The notes beneath the pieces were generated by a model. It did not search any database. It saw nothing but the letters and a program-made list of their open reading frames with translations, and had not been told where the DNA came from. DNA of 64,000 bases, from the IMG/VR virus record IMGVR_UViG_3300031953_000001; one strand, written 5' to 3'. Positions 22,415 through 43,757 of this stretch are shown here, piece by piece. Numbering within the stretch: the stretch's first letter is position 1; every line of letters begins with the position of its first letter. This DNA is from a virus. Lineage: Duplodnaviria; Caudoviricetes. The position numbers were made by a program, and so were the translations under genes.

Positions 22415-22422
22415 CCGACATA

Positions 22423-22451
22423 GAGGAGGGCTTGCGCCCTCCTCGTATTTT
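22423..22451 (+). terminator. Intrinsic terminator
   Basis: GAGGAGGGC-ttgc-GCCCTCCTC followed by GTATTTT. Confidence 0.75.
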
Positions 22452-22470
22452 GCCTTAACATCTAGCTGCT

Positions 22471-23289
22471 TTATTTACCGCGCCCGATCATCGATGAGAT
22501 GAACGAGTGCATTCGTGGTCTATCATTTGTGAAGCTGGCTTTACCCCAGTTCTCTCGGTAGTACTCCATGTACATCTCGTTCGCATCGACGTAGTTATCC
22601 ACCGTCTCACGAATGCGCCCCAGAGGCACGCCACCACTCAACACCCCTTGATCCATGGCGATGTTGGTGTTGTTGTAGATGTAGGCTTTGGTGGCCAATT
22701 CCACCAACCGCCCGTAGACCTGAAAGATCCCTGGGTTGAGGTTCATCATTCCCTGGTCGTTCTCCACCAAACAGGTCAGCCCCAACTGATCCGACAGGTG
22801 GGTGATGTCGTCTCGGATCATCACGGTGTTGTCACCAATTAACTGACAGTTGGCGGTGGACACGACGGGCATGCTGGCTAAAGCCCGATACATGTCTTGC
22901 GCCGCGGCCAGAAGCTGATTCGACTGCCCTTGGTAGTAACTGGGTTGGCCGTGGTGGTTGATGTAGTTCAAGGTGCGGATGGAGACAATGCTACGTCCCC
23001 CGGTTGCCTCATGGGGTACACGCACCACGCGAGTAGCGTAGTCGATCTGCTCGTACGAAAAAGGACGTAGGTCAATACCGATCATGGTACCCCCCACCAG
23101 ATTGCAGTCGATGTTGACACGGCCTTCAATGACTTTGTCACGAATGGAGGCGTCGATGGACACGTTCTGCTCGTTACCGCGCCAGCGTGCGCCGAAGGAG
23201 GTAATGGCTTGTGGTGAGAAGGCCAGTCGCAATACCGAGTCGGGAATGCTGTGACGGACATTGTTCAAAGCGTAGGTAATAGCGTTCAT
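22471..23289 (-). CDS. Conserved phiKZ-like protein (putative virion structural)
   Basis: 272 aa; SD AGGAG on the minus strand; divergent from tubulin as in related phages. Confidence 0.7.
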   Translation of the reverse strand: MNAITYALNNVRHSIPDSVLRLAFSPQAITSFGARWRGNEQNVSIDASIRDKVIEGRVNIDCNLVGGTMIGIDLRPFSYEQIDYATRVVRVPHEATGGRSIVSIRTLNYINHHGQPSYYQGQSNQLLAAAQDMYRALASMPVVSTANCQLIGDNTVMIRDDITHLSDQLGLTCLVENDQGMMNLNPGIFQVYGRLVELATKAYIYNNTNIAMDQGVLSGGVPLGRIRETVDNYVDANEMYMEYYRENWGKASFTNDRPRMHSFISSMIGRGK

Positions 23290-23352
23290 GAGATAGGCTC
23301 CTTAAGTCGGGTCATAAGATGCTCTGTGATTGGAACCCTCAGAATCTTAGGG

Positions 23353-23366
23353 ATATATCATCCAAG
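23353..23366 (+). promoter_or_regulatory. Putative phage promoter, class ATATATYATCCAAG
   Basis: ATATATCATCCAAG upstream of phuZ; recurs at 25211, 36394, 43758 and partly at 48692. Confidence 0.6.
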
Positions 23367-23520
23367 GGTAGTTGTATTCACCCCACCCGGAGACTTATAC
23401 TGAGACCCACACATCCGACACCCCTGTGTCCAACGTACCCTGATGGTTTTTACTAACAGGCAATGACCAATAACATGCAAGTATTGCGCAATACTTCAAT
23501 CGAAACTTTAGGAGTTATAC

Positions 23521-24480
23521 ATGTCTAAGAAATTACGAGTATTTGGCTGTGGCGGTGCGGGTATTAACCTGGTGACTCATTACTTCGGTAAAGACGCCGA
23601 AGCGGGCATGGCCGAGATGGCCCCAGCGCTGATCGACACCAGTCGCTCTAACCTTATGGGCCGTAAGATTGACGAGGACTCCACGTACTTGGTAGAAGGC
23701 TTGGATGGCTCCGGTAAGATCCGCTCCGAGAACTACGACTCTATCAATAAGACCATCAAACAGATCCTGGTTCAAATCCCCCCCTGCGATATGAACGTAG
23801 TGGTGTTCAGTGCCTCAGGCGGCTCCGGGTCAGTCATCGGTCCGCTGATCATTAAGCACCTGAACGAGAAACAGATCCCTGTAATCGCGATGGTCATCGG
23901 CAGCGACGAATCCACCATCGCCGCAGAAAACACCCTCAAAACCATCAAGTCGTTGGAACTGGTGGCTAAGAACTCCAACATGCCGGTCATCATGTCGTTC
24001 CACAAAAACGATTTGGCTGGTCGGCGTTCTGACGTGGATCGTTCCGTGTGGTCAGTGATTTCATGCTTGAGCATTCTGTCGTCTGGCCAAAACGCTGAGA
24101 TGGACTACCGTGATCTGGTGCATTGGGTACAGTACACTAAGATCAACGGCGGCCGCGCTCAACTGGCAACCATGCACGTGGCTACTTCAGCCGAGCACAT
24201 GAAACGCATCACCTCACCTTTGTCGGTTGCCAGCTTGTACGGCAACCCGGATCAGGAACACCTGGCCACCTCGGCGGATTACCAGTCAGTGGGTTACACC
24301 GATCTGTCCAACACCGATTTCGATCAGATCCACTTCGTCATCGGCGTGAACGACTTGTCCCGTATAGGACGGGATTTAAAGTCACAGGTAAGTCAGCTGT
24401 TAGAAGAACGAGGCGCTCGGTTGGACGTTGATTCCATCCTCGACTCAGAAGACAACACCGATCAAGACGTTGTGCTATGA
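23521..24480 (+). CDS. phuZ: PhuZ phage tubulin
   Basis: GCGGAGIN and tubulin signature SASGGSGSVIGP; 319 aa; acidic C-terminal tail. Confidence 0.93.
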   Translation: MSKKLRVFGCGGAGINLVTHYFGKDAEAGMAEMAPALIDTSRSNLMGRKIDEDSTYLVEGLDGSGKIRSENYDSINKTIKQILVQIPPCDMNVVVFSASGGSGSVIGPLIIKHLNEKQIPVIAMVIGSDESTIAAENTLKTIKSLELVAKNSNMPVIMSFHKNDLAGRRSDVDRSVWSVISCLSILSSGQNAEMDYRDLVHWVQYTKINGGRAQLATMHVATSAEHMKRITSPLSVASLYGNPDQEHLATSADYQSVGYTDLSNTDFDQIHFVIGVNDLSRIGRDLKSQVSQLLEERGARLDVDSILDSEDNTDQDVVL

Positions 24481-24489
24481 TGCCACCGC

Positions 24490-25068
24490 TTCTGTGGTTG
24501 GGGTATCGGATGTTCTGGGGGGTTGTTGTCTTGCCCTCCTGGTGTAGAGAAGGACTCTTAGTTCTTATCCTCACTCGCGATCCCTACCCTACCCCGAGCA
24601 CTAAGGACGTCCTCCAAGCACGTCCTTATGCAGATGTGAGGGACAGACTGGAGTCGCCGTATTGTGGGTTCGGTAAGACTTGTCTGACACCCGCCTAAGG
24701 TTACTGGAGTCGCCATGCGACGTTTAGTGCTCTCAATGGGACTGTCGTGGGTTCAACCGTCTGACCTAGGGGTATTGCTCTGGTCGTGTATAGGCGTTGA
24801 ACTTCCACCGGCGCCATCGAGTGATTATGAGCGGGTGCAAGAGAGTTTGATCCGAGTGACCTCTTTAAAAGTTCCGGCTTTTAAAGCATCAACTCACACC
24901 GTTTGGGTCGGTGGATTGATTCTGGCGCACCCACCGTACTGAGATAGACTCAATAGGGCCCCATTTTTGTGGCTCTCGCCGTTGATTCGGTTGGAGGTTG
25001 AACCGTCTGTGGACAATGCGATTCGTTCGTGTTGGTTCCACGTGGCGGTTCAACCTCCTTTATTTTTT
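24490..25068 (+). ncRNA. Candidate long structured non-coding RNA or 3' trailer downstream of phuZ
   Basis: Multiple nested stems, a 12-nt direct repeat and a rod-like 3' hairpin 24993-25058 followed by a U-tract; G-U pairs on the + strand. Confidence 0.5.
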
Positions 25069-25210
25069 GTCTATCTCTTGAGTAAACGGTGCGTATAATA
25101 CCCGTACAACGCTCTGAGACTAACGTGAATAGGCGTTACTCTATCAATTGGTACATAGATGGCTATTCCTATGTAAAGGGCCATAGAAAGCACTCCAGAC
25201 GTTTTCAGGG

Positions 25211-25224
25211 ATATATTATCCAAG
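25211..25224 (+). promoter_or_regulatory. Putative phage promoter
   Basis: ATATATTATCCAAG upstream of the small-gene array. Confidence 0.6.
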
Positions 25225-25260
25225 TGTTATCTTATCCTTGACCAGAAGCGAGAGACCCCT

Positions 25261-25686
25261 GTGATCTTAATCTTTGACGTGCACGAGCATCTCTATCGCT
25301 TGGAGCAACGCTCTCGGCGACCAGAGTCTCTACTGTTGCACATGGTTGGCCACCATTTGTATCGGGAATACCATTTGAACACCGTACACCGAATCCTGTC
25401 GGTCGAACACATCAAGCACTACCCGGAGTTTCACCGCCTGTTCAGAATTGAGCTGAGTCTGGTGGGAACCTCCATTGTCCGCACAGGCTCGTTCGATGGC
25501 CACTTAACCTTAATCAACAATGACCTCTGCGTCACCTTAGAAACGACCAGGATTGGAGCACATGCACCCACACACCAAATCTCAGATCATCACCTTGAGC
25601 GGCTGGGCCGATATCGCCACTGCCTTGATCCACAGTTTTCTATACACCCAACTCGAAGAGTACAGTCCCGACCCCGAGGTGGTTGA
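25261..25686 (+). CDS. Hypothetical protein (small-gene array member 1)
   Basis: GTG start after the promoter motif; the last ~40 codons overlap the next gene. Confidence 0.5.
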   Translation: MILIFDVHEHLYRLEQRSRRPESLLLHMVGHHLYREYHLNTVHRILSVEHIKHYPEFHRLFRIELSLVGTSIVRTGSFDGHLTLINNDLCVTLETTRIGAHAPTHQISDHHLERLGRYRHCLDPQFSIHPTRRVQSRPRGG

Positions 25687-26092
25687 GAAGTTAAGTCTTA
25701 AGTGGACCATCAAAGACAGCACTCACTGGGTTGGCGTGATGTTGGACGATGAGTTCAACCGTCAGATGGCGTGGGCCGATGGCACCGATGTGGCGTTTGA
25801 TTCGATCATGCTCCAGATGAGCGAGAAGTACGGTTCGGCCTTACCTCAGATACTGCACCTGGACAAACCGAACAAAACCCAACGGACCTTGTTCTTAGAA
25901 GATCTGATTGTGACCTTGGACCCCGTTACGGTGGTGATCGGTGAGTTCGTCTCGGACTTGGTCAAGCAAAACCCTTGGTGGGTCTGGTCGATTCACGGTC
26001 GTGGCGATGTGGTCTTATTGGAGTCGGATGAGGATTTCCGCATCAAGATGTTTAATCAAAAAATAGAAACGGGCGAATGGTCCATTAAGTGA
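25562..26092 (+). CDS. Hypothetical protein (array member 2)
   Basis: ATG at 25562 with AGGA upstream. Confidence 0.65.
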   Translation: MHPHTKSQIITLSGWADIATALIHSFLYTQLEEYSPDPEVVEKLSLKWTIKDSTHWVGVMLDDEFNRQMAWADGTDVAFDSIMLQMSEKYGSALPQILHLDKPNKTQRTLFLEDLIVTLDPVTVVIGEFVSDLVKQNPWWVWSIHGRGDVVLLESDEDFRIKMFNQKIETGEWSIK

Positions 26093-26098
26093 GGGCGT

Positions 26099-26467
26099 AT
26101 GGTTTACGAGTATCGCCACCAATTAAAACTCTATGAGGTAGGGTCGTATCTGATCGACTACCTTGATGAGTACGCCATCGTGCCCTTTGCAGGCACCATT
26201 CACAACAGTCTGGAATCGTACGTGCGCTTCTTGCTGATGAACGACTACCATCAAGCGTCTCAACTCAAAGCCACGCTCACTCGCCTACTGCCCCCGGAGT
26301 GTGTAGAACCGCTCGCCGACACCATCCACGACCTGCTGTTGTCTCAGCTCCGCCCTTTCCTCAATCTGGATGAGGGCGAATCGGTGGTGTCGGTGCGGGT
26401 GCAGCGCAACTACGACATTGAGGTCATTGTGGAAGAGCTGGACGGCGCCCATTTGATTCAGGCTTAA
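26099..26467 (+). CDS. Hypothetical protein (array member 3)
   Basis: SD GAGGG; 122 aa. Confidence 0.7.
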   Translation: MVYEYRHQLKLYEVGSYLIDYLDEYAIVPFAGTIHNSLESYVRFLLMNDYHQASQLKATLTRLLPPECVEPLADTIHDLLLSQLRPFLNLDEGESVVSVRVQRNYDIEVIVEELDGAHLIQA

Positions 26468-31514: not shown

Positions 31515-31550
31515 GCTAGGTGAAACGGGCCTTAGCTCGTTTCACCTAGC
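31515..31550. terminator. 16-bp hairpin between convergent genes (bidirectional terminator)
   Basis: GCTAGGTGAAACGGGC-ctta-GCTCGTTTCACCTAGC. Confidence 0.7.
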
Positions 31551-31552
31551 CG

Positions 31553-32644
31553 CTACAAGTACGCTATAATAGCTCGATCGATGTGATCGAGCACGCCTTC
31601 TGCTGAGTCCTCACCCAAGGCCGACCCAAAGTCTCGGTCTTGTATCAGTTCTCGGTATTTACGTTTGATGTTCGCTGCCTCGTGGTAGTTACGCGCACTG
31701 CCTGCGGCGTAGTCACACTGCACCATAAACTCCAAGATTGGCAACACGGCCAGATTCACCGCCCAGGCGTTCTGTCGAGTGATGGCAATCTTAGGCGCGC
31801 GGCTGACCACATACAGGTCACGGTGGTCGTCCACCAGCTTGATCTGCTGCAGCATGTCGTCGTAAGTCATAGGACGTTGCTGAAGGTGTGCTATGCGATC
31901 GATTAAGTACTTGTCGGTCTTATCGCTCAAGTCGGTCAGGTAGAAGGGCCAAGCGTTGTACCCTTCTTCTAAAGGGGTGGTTTGCAGATGGGTTTTCAAT
32001 CGATTAAAGAGGGAGATCTCTAACTGACTGATCAACGCATTACCCAAGGGGTACTCGTGTACAAACTGCATGACGGTTCGGATGAAGGGTTCCCCTGCCC
32101 GTTTTTGCGCCAGGTACCATTGCCGGTACTGGATGGCCATCATCACCACGTCGATCTGAATCACTGCCCAGGTAGGCGTTTTGCTGGATTGACTGCCGTC
32201 TAACGCCGAGATGGACAAGTGGTTGAACGGATGCCGCAACACTTTAACCGACTGTAAGCTTTTCCAGTGGGTGTCCAGATCCAACAGATCGAAATCGGTA
32301 CTGACCGAGAGCAAGGCCTCAAACACGTTCTTACCGTAGAAACGATCGTCGTCGGTCACCTGCCCGCGTTTACCGGCGCTGGTTAACCCGTTAGCTCGGG
32401 TAATCCCTTCCAATCGATTGCTGACTAATCGATGGTATTCGAACAAGGGGAGATTCGGATCAACGGCTATGCCAGTGAGTAGCTTGACCAGGATGTGGTT
32501 GCTGCGCACCGCGTAGCTGGCCCCTCTTAGGTGGCGCAGCACGGTGATGAGGTTCTTACGTAGTTGACGGCGCACGTACTCGTACCCAGCCGGGACGGTA
32601 ACCCGTGCAGCGCCCGTGCTATGATCGGTAAATAACGTATACAT
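31553..32644 (-). CDS. Conserved virion protein (phiKZ gp52-like)
   Basis: 363 aa on the opposite strand between the polymerase and chimallin, as in phiKZ-like gene order. Confidence 0.65.
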   Translation of the reverse strand: MYTLFTDHSTGAARVTVPAGYEYVRRQLRKNLITVLRHLRGASYAVRSNHILVKLLTGIAVDPNLPLFEYHRLVSNRLEGITRANGLTSAGKRGQVTDDDRFYGKNVFEALLSVSTDFDLLDLDTHWKSLQSVKVLRHPFNHLSISALDGSQSSKTPTWAVIQIDVVMMAIQYRQWYLAQKRAGEPFIRTVMQFVHEYPLGNALISQLEISLFNRLKTHLQTTPLEEGYNAWPFYLTDLSDKTDKYLIDRIAHLQQRPMTYDDMLQQIKLVDDHRDLYVVSRAPKIAITRQNAWAVNLAVLPILEFMVQCDYAAGSARNYHEAANIKRKYRELIQDRDFGSALGEDSAEGVLDHIDRAIIAYL

Positions 32645-32969
32645 AACGAGGTCTCGTGGCGGTATTTAGAAGCAGTAGGAGATTAGGTCATAGTATGCGA
32701 GCAGTGTACTCGCATCCTCCGTTCTTCGGCGTTTCTAGGGCGTCGGGGAGCATCTATACCGTTATGCCCATTTGGCTGTGAAATTGGACGGTTTGGCGCT
32801 ATCTAATGAACCAATGATAGACACACATCTATAATTTCTTACACGGTAGTGCCTACTATATAGACACCATGCATCTGGACATCCTCGACGGAGGATGATC
32901 CGGTCAACCCACAGTCTATTCGTTTTTACTCTGTGGTCGGTGTATAATCCATGGATTGTAAAACATTTG

Positions 32970-32990
32970 AGACCTACATCATCAAGGTGA
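32970..32990 (+). promoter_or_regulatory. Putative early promoter of chimallin
   Basis: AGACCTACATCATCAAGGTGA, same class as 19936 and 56827. Confidence 0.6.
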
Positions 32991-33052
32991 CATAGTTCGC
33001 TTAAGAACTGTGTTTGCGCAAACACAAACCGAAGAAAGCAGGAGTATTACGC

Positions 33053-34909
33053 ATGCCAGTAAATATCGATGACGACAACACACCAAACACCAACCCACCC
33101 CGCGAAGAACAGACTGCCCCCCGTTCCAACCAAAACCAACAGTCTCGTTCTCCCCGCGGTAAACGTGAAGGCATGGGTGCTCTTGGCGAACGCATCCAGC
33201 GTTCTATGAAACGCAACCAGATGGGCGAGGCCTTGGCTGAGTATCAGCGTGCTGTGGACAAAATCTTCAGCGATCTGATGGCACAGACAGGCGCTGAGTT
33301 TAAGGTTCTGCCTTTGGACGCCAGCCGTCACTCCCTACACTACTCAGCAGTCATGCTGGTAGGCGTAATGAACATCGGTGGCCAAAGCATCGCCTCGACG
33401 TACACCATGATTCTCGAGGGGTCTGCGTCTGACCCTCGTCCGGTCATTGCTCAGGTGTACGGGCAACCTGTTGAATCCATCCGCACCGCGATGGACGCGT
33501 GGGACGAACTGACGTGGCAGAAAGTGCAGTCAGTGGTTGCTCAGCAATACGGCGACGGTGTCAACATCATGAACGCCGGTGCGATGGTCGTACCTGCCGA
33601 AGTAGAAGCCAAGGATGAAGAGCGTGTGTGGCAGATCGTTTGGGCCGCTCAGGAAGCTGTACTGTCCAATCTGGAAAGCGCTTTCCCACAAGACTTTGCT
33701 CATTTCAACCTGGCTGAGATGTTTGATCCGTCTCGCGATCGCATGAACGCGTCTTTCACCTACAACGGTGATGATGGCGAATCGGTTACCGGTCTACCTG
33801 TACGTAGTGACATCACTTTGGTCATGGCCGCCAGCGAACGCAACTCCAGCGGTCGGGATGACGTGTCGTCTTTCCAACACCAGACCTCTCGTGACCTGAT
33901 GGAAGTGAACAGCTACGTGGATCTGGTGTACGCCCCGAGCAATCAAGTGCCCGCACCGGGCCAACAGCCACCGACTCAGACCTTCGTGCCACGTGTGGTT
34001 CTGACCAAGGTTACCGCTTTGGATGCGCCGTTTACTCCAGAAACGTTCCTGTTGGCACTAGCCACCTCGTGCTTGTTGGGCGAAAGCTACAACTGGGCGT
34101 CTCAGTTCGCTAACTTCTCGGCTGAAGAAGTGCACGACATTGGCGGCGTTGGTTACCGCATGAAGAACCCAGCAGACGCCAACGCGGCGTCGGCAGCCAT
34201 CGACACCAAGACCAACAGCTTTGGCACCAACGAGTTGTTTGACCTGGTACAACACACTTGCTGGAAAGATCCTGCGTTCTCCATCGACTGTGAAGACGTG
34301 GGTCCCGAGTCCTGGCTGACAGGTGCCCTGGTAGATGCCGCACACAACAATGCCCAAGCGATGGACTTCATCGTGCAAGCAGCCAACAACTTGACCAATG
34401 GTCAGTTCAGTCAAGTGTGGCAGGGCGGTTCCATCACAGCGTCTGAAAACAACAAGGTACATTTGGGTACCTACGTGGATGCTCAGGGTCAGATCCGCGA
34501 TCTGCGGGAAATCGACAGCCTGGCGATCCTGAATCACTTCGGTCATAACGACATGACTGCGGTTAACCTGTGGGAAAGCACGTTTAACGACATGCAAGCA
34601 CCCATCGAACTGCGCCTTGAGAAGCGTCTCCAGATGATCCGTCAGCTGGCAGGTAAACTCAAGATCCGTGGCTTCGCTGAGCGCGTAACCTTCGTTCCAG
34701 AATTCCTGGATGCGCTGGTACAATCAGTCGTGCGTGCTGGCTTGGCAGTAGATCAAGATGGCCTACAGTCTCTGTACGGTCAGAATGTGCAAGTTGGCAA
34801 CAACTTCCTGCAGAACTACGCTGCGCACACCGGCGCCAACGGCATGATGAACCAAAGTGGCCCTGTCGGTCACCACGCGTTCCGTCGGCCGATGTCCCGC
34901 TGGGGCTAA
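33053..34909 (+). CDS. chmA: Chimallin (phage nuclear shell protein, phiKZ gp54-like)
   Basis: ATG at 33053 with CAGGAG SD; 618 aa with disordered termini; QTFVPRVVLT motif; lies immediately upstream of the nvRNAP beta' gene. Confidence 0.88.
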   Translation: MPVNIDDDNTPNTNPPREEQTAPRSNQNQQSRSPRGKREGMGALGERIQRSMKRNQMGEALAEYQRAVDKIFSDLMAQTGAEFKVLPLDASRHSLHYSAVMLVGVMNIGGQSIASTYTMILEGSASDPRPVIAQVYGQPVESIRTAMDAWDELTWQKVQSVVAQQYGDGVNIMNAGAMVVPAEVEAKDEERVWQIVWAAQEAVLSNLESAFPQDFAHFNLAEMFDPSRDRMNASFTYNGDDGESVTGLPVRSDITLVMAASERNSSGRDDVSSFQHQTSRDLMEVNSYVDLVYAPSNQVPAPGQQPPTQTFVPRVVLTKVTALDAPFTPETFLLALATSCLLGESYNWASQFANFSAEEVHDIGGVGYRMKNPADANAASAAIDTKTNSFGTNELFDLVQHTCWKDPAFSIDCEDVGPESWLTGALVDAAHNNAQAMDFIVQAANNLTNGQFSQVWQGGSITASENNKVHLGTYVDAQGQIRDLREIDSLAILNHFGHNDMTAVNLWESTFNDMQAPIELRLEKRLQMIRQLAGKLKIRGFAERVTFVPEFLDALVQSVVRAGLAVDQDGLQSLYGQNVQVGNNFLQNYAAHTGANGMMNQSGPVGHHAFRRPMSRWG

Positions 34910-42064: not shown

Positions 42065-42918
42065 TGAGACAATCGGAAGATATCTTAGCCGAACGGGAAA
42101 TGGGTCAGTATCCGATCTCGATAGGAACGTCGTTAGCTCTTGAGGGAGCTAACGGCGTTTACCCAGACCGTGAAGAAACCCCACCCCCGATCTTACAGTA
42201 CAACCGCCTGTGGGTTAATGTGGCCACTCTGTTCCGTAACCTCTTCAACAGCATGACCGCTGAAGAGCAGGATCGAGTGATCGCCAGAGATCTGAGCATT
42301 GCCCTGGCATCTGAGTTGGGTCCTATAGACGCTGCGGTAGCGGATGTGGCGGGACGTAAGGTCAAGGTGACCTTCTACCTGAACCAACTCACTCGAATGG
42401 CGGTGTGGTTTCCTAAGGCCAACTTAAAGAAGCCCACCACCCCCAAGCAACGGATCTTTGCTGGGCTGATGGCTGAGACCTTGTCTTTATTACCCAACTA
42501 CCTGGAAGACATAGATTACCGTTACGCCGATGGGCCATTGGAGGGCGACGGTCGGGCGCTGATCCTCACGCACAGCGCGGTTGATTTGCTCTCAACCTAT
42601 CGGTTTGATGAGTTAGTGTTGTTGGAATCGCACACCGGTAAATTGAAACCTAAGTCGCAATGGGGCACTAAGCTCGGGGCTAAAGATGAGACCATGCCGT
42701 TCAATGCGTTTACGCTGCAAGTCTTCGGTGATGGGTCAACGCACTTTTCACCGATGTCGATTAAATATCGACGCGCGGTCCTAGAGGTCGCAAAGAAAGA
42801 TCGTTGGGTTAGTGTCACTACCTTGGCGAAAATCAGAATGGGCGTGAACACCATTAAGGACCCTCAGATAAAAGACGATCTGATAACCCTGATGGACGAC
42901 ACGTCATTTCCTACATAA
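42064..42918 (+). CDS. Conserved core protein (phiKZ gp66-like; possible 5'-3' exonuclease-like fold)
   Basis: REMGQYPISIGTSLALE...WVNVATLFRN and LLESHTGKLK motifs; synteny. Confidence 0.6.
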   Translation: MRQSEDILAEREMGQYPISIGTSLALEGANGVYPDREETPPPILQYNRLWVNVATLFRNLFNSMTAEEQDRVIARDLSIALASELGPIDAAVADVAGRKVKVTFYLNQLTRMAVWFPKANLKKPTTPKQRIFAGLMAETLSLLPNYLEDIDYRYADGPLEGDGRALILTHSAVDLLSTYRFDELVLLESHTGKLKPKSQWGTKLGAKDETMPFNAFTLQVFGDGSTHFSPMSIKYRRAVLEVAKKDRWVSVTTLAKIRMGVNTIKDPQIKDDLITLMDDTSFPT

Positions 42919-43671: not shown

Positions 43672-43757
43672 GTGTCTCTCCAAGACCCAGGTCCGTTTGG
43701 GCCTTGGGTCTTGGTTAATGTCCCAATGGTCCGTTGGTTTTCTAAAAAAATAGAGTC

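Follow-up and report, generated by a model that had tools for sequence, protein, structure and literature searches.

The stretch of about 590 nt that follows the tubulin gene phuZ was analysed in 64,000 nt of DNA from a virus of the Caudoviricetes (IMG/VR record IMGVR_UViG_3300031953_000001). The whole of this DNA is called the window here, and the stretch between the phuZ stop codon and the terminator behind it is called the module. On balance, the module is probably the translated, heavily folded and cis-acting distal part of the phuZ transcription unit. Comparison with metagenomic relatives indicates that an RNA fold is under selection alongside two reading frames in the same 590 nt, with the length fixed and the sequence saturated. 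A preliminary description, made from the letters of the sequence, had presented the stretch as poor in open reading frames (ORFs) and as a functional structured RNA. The structured RNA was upheld in its conserved fold, covariation, plus-strand preference, length, position and terminator. Its non-coding status was not, and a separate non-coding RNA is most likely the wrong reading.

Two reading frames behind phuZ

Rather than being poor in ORFs, positions 24477-24942 are filled by two ORFs on the plus strand, with the start region of the second lying between them and reaching into it:

ORF1, 24477-24698, + strand: 73 codons; its ATG overlaps the phuZ stop (ATGA); N-terminal hydrophobic helix and variable tail, with an SPxCGxG motif
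ORF2, 24715-24942, + strand: 75 codons; N-terminus beginning MRRL, with an EVVRDETLG motif in homologues
ORF2 translation start region, 24703-24734, + strand: Shine-Dalgarno site GGAG (24706-24709) and AUG (24715), both within a local hairpin

The relatives used for comparison form a graded series of PhuZ identity. The loci were L001 (88%), L105 (83%), L006, L007, L064, L114, L005 and L063 (81%), L108 (75%), L109 (72%), L110 (68%) and L112 (65%), and L116 was added later. L104 and a contig of run X12 were left out as the same phage as the window. When positions 24481-25260 were compared by blastn with the loci of all relatives, only 25136-25260 aligned (78-88%), and none of 24481-25135 did. 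The distance from the phuZ stop to the T-run of the terminator nevertheless hardly varied, at 570-593 nt in seven lineages beyond the reach of a blastn alignment (583 nt in the window, 589 in L001, 570 in L105, 593 in L006, 575 in L108, 588 in L109 and about 589 in L116).

Both frames are open across these lineages. In seven lineages the ORF1 frame runs for about 70 codons free of stops, against 32 and 20 stops in the other two frames, and the ORF2 frame has none in six lineages, against 28 and 22. In L116, the eighth lineage, both ORF parts are open and fused. With an off-frame stop rate of 0.048-0.058 per codon, the probability that one lineage is open by chance is 0.015-0.033, and that for all lineages is about 1e-6 or less, even at four effective lineages. 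The start signals are conserved as well. The ORF1 start lies over the phuZ stop in the form NTGA, with ATG in the window, GTG in L105, L108 and L116, and TTG in L006, L109 and L005; CTG occurs at this place in L001 only, and a start codon overlaps the phuZ stop in 7/8 lineages. The ORF2 ATG is preceded at 5-7 nt by a GGAG/GAGG Shine-Dalgarno site in all lineages. ORF2 is called by gene finders in the relatives, and the gene-caller products include the exact ORF1 sequence (P0126) and the ORF2 of this phage (P0125).

Substitutions between close pairs are consistent with translation. Within the module, L107 and L108 are separated by four substitutions; each is synonymous in the ORF frame, and the 3' part has none. 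Their phuZ genes differ by 14 synonymous changes, including a recombined patch; with this patch discounted, the neutral expectation for the module is about 19-35 changes, compared with the four seen. L105/L106 shows four synonymous and four non-synonymous changes, and L001/L003 a single non-synonymous one. Pooled over the close pairs, the ratio of synonymous to non-synonymous changes is 8:5, which departs from a neutral 1:3 with P 0.006, on small numbers. ORF2 differences by codon position were 0.56/0.48/0.68.

The two proteins share only 13-33% identity between lineages where PhuZ is 72-88% identical, and thus evolve very fast. AlphaFold2 models of four fused homologues contained a helix at residues 3-37 (predicted local distance difference test, pLDDT, 85-95). 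The Kyte-Doolittle maxima of ORF1 were 1.4-2.3, which is compatible with a single membrane-type helix. In L105, L108, L109 and L116, ORF1 and ORF2 are fused in one frame, giving 136-151 amino acids from the called starts, and the window, L001 and L006 have them at a +1 offset. Inspection of the ORF1/ORF2 junction by eye showed no classical slippery site, and frameshifting is therefore not proposed.

Two resemblances were not borne out. The MRRILVVGCG of the relatives' ORF2 (24715-24750 in the window) resembles KLRVFGCGGAG, which forms the first strand and glycine loop of PhuZ (23527-23560), and the hhalign comparison of ORF2 with the PhuZ N-terminus was not significant (E 0.014, 11 columns, probability 3%); a relic of a phuZ duplication can be imagined but has no support. 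Matches to actin fragments in the ESM Atlas (score 0.86) were within noise.

Hairpins along the module

The 595 nt after phuZ fold at -243 kcal/mol, with a z-score against shuffled sequences of -6.4 on the plus strand and -4.2 on the minus strand. As 24 other 590-nt segments of the 64-kb DNA gave z-scores of -1.5 +/- 1.3 with a minimum of -4.1, the stretch is an outlier. Six full-length relatives all folded better than their shuffles (z -2.6 to -8.6). In the window, most of the excess came from the last 128 nt (z -7.3), with -1.1 for the first 234 nt and -1.6 for the next 228 nt.

The fold is conserved between lineages. RNAalifold analysis of seven full-length modules gave a consensus structure of 65 pairs, 32 of which keep pairing through two-sided changes. 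The consensus energy was -39.2, compared with -10.0 +/- 3.8 (best -22.2) in 60 alignments whose columns had been shuffled within classes of gap pattern and conservation, a z-score of -7.7. Two 590-nt phuZ alignments served as controls from the same genomes and gave z-scores of -2.5 and -3.2, versus -7.6 for the six-lineage module. The consensus energy favoured the plus strand (-39.2 vs -27.6), as did the G-U pairs. The helices were local hairpins distributed along the whole module, each paired in 76-98% of cases, as against about 30-50% with slid partners; a fold-back helix joining the 5' and 3' ends had no support in the consensus structure. The hairpins, in order, were as follows:

H0, 24482-24502, + strand: just past the phuZ stop; 8 pairs in the RNAalifold consensus, 77% paired, 3 compensatory; 30-46% paired with slid partners
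H1, 24532-24546, + strand: 6 pairs in the RNAalifold consensus, 79% paired, 4 compensatory
H2, 24598-24631 (core 24602-24628), + strand: stem TAAGGACGT/ACGTCCTTA, loop CCUCCAAGC; -16.1 kcal/mol, z -5.1
H3, 24657-24673, + strand: inside ORF1; 5-bp stem with an invariant 7-nt loop, UUGUGGR; 97% paired
ORF2 start-site hairpin, 24712-24734, + strand: -11.6 kcal/mol, z -2.4; consensus helix 77% paired, 3 compensatory
H4, 24761-24793, + strand: inside ORF2; 9 pairs, 84% paired, 7 compensatory; 30-48% paired with slid partners
H5, 24834-24856, + strand: inside ORF2; G-U rich; 7 pairs, 82% paired
H6, 24896-24914, + strand: near the end of ORF2; stem GCACCN / NGGUGU with a 7-nt loop; 6 pairs, 95% paired, 2 compensatory
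Hairpins A (24940-24952), B (24955-24976) and C (24978-24991), + strand: 3' untranslated region (UTR), from the window fold

H3 is the clearest helix, and H3 and B are the strongest in conservation of both sequence and pairing. Three of the five pairs of the H3 stem change on both sides (9 cells), and none of 500 shuffles reached its covariation score. The invariant letters of the loop include three synonymous codon positions of ORF1, while adjacent first and second positions vary and covary, a pattern opposite to that of coding sequence. Hairpin B was 94.6% paired, with 4/8 pairs compensatory. A covariance model of H3 (R2) had one match in the window and, in the clade, matched this site only; a model of A-B-C (R1) had a single match in the window and reached 48-61 bits at the corresponding site of each relative. 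Neither model had a match in L110, L112, phiKZ or RTH11, and R1 gave no other strong match.

Most of the pairings named in the preliminary description were recovered. The H2 hairpin TAAGGACGT/ACGTCCTTA at 24602-24628 is present, and the energy listed above includes its extension. The CTTTAAAAG/CTTTTAAAG pairing at 24863-24886 is also present, as are the letters of an imperfect hairpin at about 24751-24822, part of which is H4. The check for covariation in relatives that had been proposed there was positive for H3, B and H4 (seven lineages). The long-range pairing GAGCACTAA/TTAGTGCTC was not confirmed: its complementary letters are present, but the predicted ensemble leaves them unused, with the ORF2 start region paired locally instead, and the consensus structure lacks the pairing. 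The 12-mer ACTGGAGTCGCC, described as a repeated protein-binding site, does occur at 24647 and 24703. The copy at 24703 forms the Shine-Dalgarno region of ORF2, and no such repeat was seen in the relatives by eye, without a formal search, so that only the repetition itself was retained.

The H2 position presents a more uneven picture. In the window, L001, L105 and L005 the centre of a stable hairpin lies 134.5-135.5 nt downstream of the phuZ stop, and in L116 it lies 137 nt downstream; none was significant at this position in L006, L108 or L109. The stems have no evident sequence similarity between lineages and could not be aligned; such hairpins occur at a background density of 1.66 per kb. 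H6 was also flagged by the terminator scan.

The module has no counterpart among the RNA families searched. No Rfam 15 covariance model, including those of ROOL, GOLLD, OLE, group I and II introns and riboswitches, matched at an E-value of 10 or below in positions 23400-26200, and none matched at 1 or below in the loci of six relatives; the proposed Rfam/Infernal check thus named no family. ARAGORN found no tRNA or tmRNA gene in the whole window.

Terminator, transcription and rival explanations

Two features mark the end of the module and the start of what follows:

Intrinsic terminator, 24993-25068, + strand: 29-bp interrupted rod (24993-25058) followed by UUUAUUUUUU; -46 kcal/mol, z -9.2
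Boundary block outside the module, 25136-25260, + strand: motif GGATATATTATC at 25209-25220, ahead of the next operon

The rod-like hairpin with its U-tract, as first described, is present, and it has the anatomy of an intrinsic terminator on the plus strand only, a stable G+C-rich stem-loop followed by a U-tract. A long hairpin and T-run occupy the equivalent place in the seven relatives examined, with stems that cannot be aligned. The strongest simple hairpins elsewhere in the window, at 713-756, 31515-31550, 43680-43714 and 42125-42160 (-24 to -34 kcal/mol), are probably further intrinsic terminators.

The motif GGATATAT(C/T)ATC was found at only two places in the 64 kb, upstream of phuZ at 23351 and upstream of the next operon at 25209. 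The copy at 23351-23362 has one mismatch to that at 25209-25220, and the latter is kept in all relatives, ahead of the next operon. The motif probably represents a class of phage promoter. A scan of the 64-kb window found no copy inside the module, and with the motif at these two places only, phuZ, ORF1, ORF2 and the 3' hairpins appear to form a single transcription unit that lacks an internal promoter of this type. RNA from one metatranscriptome library of one study is in agreement with this arrangement. A contig at depth 182 covers about 22415-25004 and ends at 25004, in Illumina adapter sequence, within the ascending arm of the terminator; 25005-25107 is uncovered in the same library, and cover resumes at 25108 with a contig at depth 11, about 100 nt ahead of the 25209 motif. 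DNA runs cross the terminator site. The RNA cover fits a contiguous RNA extending from phuZ across the module and ending at the terminator.

In the reading that we prefer, transcription would probably start at the 23351 motif, pass through phuZ and end at the 29-bp terminator at 24993-25068. Ribosomes leaving phuZ would probably restart on the ATGA overlap and enter ORF1, whose predicted product is small, with a single membrane-type helix at the N-terminus and a tail that varies. ORF2 would yield a second small, fast-evolving protein, its Shine-Dalgarno site and AUG being gated by their own local hairpin. About twelve local hairpins over 590 nt, located in both ORFs (H0-H6) and then in A, B, C and the terminator, would be maintained by selection on the RNA itself. 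They would most likely act in cis by setting the translation of ORF1 and ORF2 relative to that of PhuZ, and would shield the 3' end of the phuZ messenger against nucleases; H3 and B may be the best candidates for recognition sites of a protein or an RNase. It is also conceivable, if improbable, that the hairpin array is a new phuZ-attached RNA element whose H3 (UUGUGGR) and B loops bind a phage RNA-binding protein controlling the stability, nuclear export or localisation of the phuZ messenger, or that its processed tail acts in trans, with the same RNA encoding a PhuZ-coupled, membrane-anchored peptide. The suggestion of a link to the nucleus or spindle stage went no further than adjacency to phuZ and probable co-transcription.

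Several observations weigh against translation and cis action as set out here. The comparison covers only 7-8 lineages, the mean identity of the six-lineage MAFFT alignment is 47%, and the sequences that yielded the consensus structure are also those on which it was scored. ORF1 and ORF2 have no Pfam or PHROG match, and profile searches of 5.8 and 1.8 billion proteins recovered this clade only. Their codon-usage scores (-0.05 and -0.02) lie midway between those of real genes (0.30 +/- 0.13) and of wrong frames (about -0.5), though the proposed frame is the best of the three. AlphaFold2 gave nothing confident outside the helix, and the relation of the two ORFs varies from fusion in four lineages to a +1 offset in three. 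The RNA contigs show neither strand, true transcript ends, a single transcript nor translation. Finally, the module is reduced by different internal deletions in the closely related phages L005 and L063 (PhuZ 81%), to 341 and 278 nt, and is therefore dispensable in that lineage. L005 (4958-5310) retains ORF1, the ORF2 start and the terminator and has lost hairpins A, B and C; L063 (4958-5250) retains the ORF1 start, the ORF2 end, hairpins A, B and C and the terminator and has lost ORF2. The module is thus being lost piecemeal in this lineage.

The retention of A, B, C and the terminator in L063, though ORF2 is lost, is also what might be expected if the whole module, or just its final 130-200 nt with A, B, C and the terminator, were cut from the phuZ messenger as a stable RNA acting in trans through the H3 and B loops on a phage or host protein. 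The H3 loop, with its invariant synonymous sites, and hairpins B and C keep their sequence while their surroundings are saturated, the structure signal is far above that of phuZ, and RNAs composed of a 3' UTR-derived stem-loop and terminator are documented in phiKZ and PAK_P3 (PMC8545117, PMC10914365). We consider such a processed RNA unlikely, as no copy of the promoter-like motif lies inside the module, L005 keeps the terminator alone of these 3' elements, and there is no known partner.

It is quite unlikely that the module consists of ordinary small accessory genes followed by a terminator, with functionless hairpins inside the ORFs and a structure signal produced by composition, by effects of the alignment and, in fast-evolving DNA, by quasi-palindrome mutation. 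Background-level folding of the first two segments of the window's module, the uneven significance of H2 and a genome-wide negative bias in z would all be accounted for in this way. However, column shuffles that preserve composition and conservation still leave the z-score of -7.7, and pairing falls to 30-50% when partners are slid. The compensatory changes and invariant synonymous sites of H3, and the deficit of changes between L107 and L108, are likewise difficult to reconcile with functionless hairpins.

A discrete non-coding RNA of about 580 nt with ORF1 and ORF2 untranslated, which would agree with the strong conserved folding, the atypical codon usage and the lack of a protein family, is very improbable, given that both frames with their start signals are open in all intact lineages (6-8 saturated lineages), that changes in close pairs are biased to synonymous sites, that a membrane-type helix is predicted, and that the stretch has neither an Rfam match at the thresholds above nor a promoter motif of its own.

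Distribution among phages and comparison with known systems

The PhuZ tubulin gene itself lies at 23521-24480 on the plus strand (Pfam TubZ_C_2, 1.3e-15; Tubulin, 6.5e-12), and the gene upstream of it is divergent and encodes a DUF7484 protein. PhuZ homologues were found at 40-92% identity. In INPHARED, no PhuZ was closer than 40% identity (the nearest cultured phages), and a single-protein scan of viral contigs gave no match. Contigs carrying the DNA of the window reach 228,887 bases, and the phage is therefore a jumbo phage and not the compact one that had been supposed. By the labels of the runs it comes from Arctic brine, and its host is probably a Marinobacter-like bacterium.

The module is confined to one clade of uncultured chimalliviruses and is absent from Rfam. 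In phiKZ, only 54 nt separate phuZ (PHIKZ039) from PHIKZ040 (L117, phiKZ 31930-33450), and 186 nt lie downstream of phuZ in RTH11; the element is thus not general across the Chimalliviridae, as the first account had implied in treating it as a feature of their phuZ-downstream regions, and the two hairpin models match this clade only. At lower PhuZ identity (65-68%), in L110 (3957-4360) and L112 (3966-4445), another small ORF overlaps the phuZ stop as TAATG; it has a hydrophobic N-terminus, and a terminator lies about 380-400 nt downstream. This ORF was rejected as a homologue of the module's proteins, as the hhalign E-values (0.28 and 0.082) were not significant. A hairpin resembling H3 that was noticed by eye in L110, with a CGCGU / ACGCG stem around UUUGUGGG, was not matched by model R2 and was also set aside.

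The RNA biology of nucleus-forming jumbo phages is almost unexplored, and the few UTR-derived RNA candidates that are known all come from cultured Pseudomonas phages. In phiKZ, 3'UTR_PHIKZ298 is an RNA of about 100 nt that forms two stem-loops, the terminator being the second (Gerovac 2021, PMC8545117; Putzeys 2024, PMC10914365), and ncRNA1 and ncRNA2 of PAK_P3 are also phage RNAs derived from 3' UTRs (PMC8545117, PMC10914365). The module resembles these, on their descriptions only, in that its conserved stem-loops directly precede an intrinsic terminator and have no promoter of their own, and the phage studied here is, like phiKZ, a nucleus-forming jumbo phage; in contrast to those RNAs, the module has no demonstrated processed species. 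Another phiKZ RNA, 'p40', was described from Grad-seq and ONT-cappable-seq as the 180-nt 5' UTR of a gene called p40 (PMC8545117, PMC10914365). It was considered as a neighbour of phuZ and rejected, as the 54-nt gap between phuZ and PHIKZ040 is too short for a 180-nt 5' UTR; it probably derives from another locus, and the similar names invite confusion.

The internal hairpins are more readily compared with regulatory sites in phage messengers. The operator of the MS2 coat protein and the sites of T4 RegA and gene 32 are cases of translational operator hairpins or coupling in polycistronic phage mRNAs. H3, which is located within one cistron ahead of the start of the next and combines an invariant loop with a covarying stem, is similar to these, and the folded start site of ORF2 and the NTGA start/stop overlap of phuZ and ORF1 are features of coupled phage cistrons. 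Unlike the MS2 and T4 operators, H3 is not placed on the Shine-Dalgarno site of the next cistron, ORF2, but about 40-50 nt upstream of it, and the hairpins of the module have no known binding protein; the phage also has a DNA genome, whereas that of MS2 is RNA.

Two further systems were compared. ROOL and GOLLD are large, phage-associated structured RNAs of Rfam, in the size range of about 580-600 nt. The module shares this approximate size, the phage context and the many helices, but has no Rfam match, carries two conserved ORFs and forms a row of local hairpins instead of a multi-branch fold. The hok/mok systems are type I toxin mRNAs in which the message for a small hydrophobic single-helix peptide is highly folded and carries a second, coupled frame. 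The predicted small, single-helix hydrophobic peptide of ORF1, its highly folded mRNA and the second coupled reading frame recall this organisation. ORF1, however, has 73 codons and a long non-hydrophobic tail and is coupled to an abundant structural gene, and the fold-back helix is unsupported in the module.

The module supplies defined RNA motifs, H3 and B, that are missing from Rfam, and points to a possible translational coupling of PhuZ with a small membrane protein. If the hairpins merely stabilise the mRNA, this would be ordinary operon anatomy. It also calls for caution, since phage stretches that look ORF-poor and hairpin-rich can be small, fast-evolving genes.

Small deletions were seen in the assemblies of the same phage as the window. 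L104 differs from the window by three single-base deletions and is uninformative as a relative. The L104 and X12 assemblies, from an 'aquatic metagenome' study, carry deletions of 1-2 bases at sites corresponding to 23421, 23778 and 24517 of the window, and in the X12 contig the deletion at 23778 falls within phuZ itself. These deletions are probably homopolymer or long-read assembly errors and not real frameshifts.

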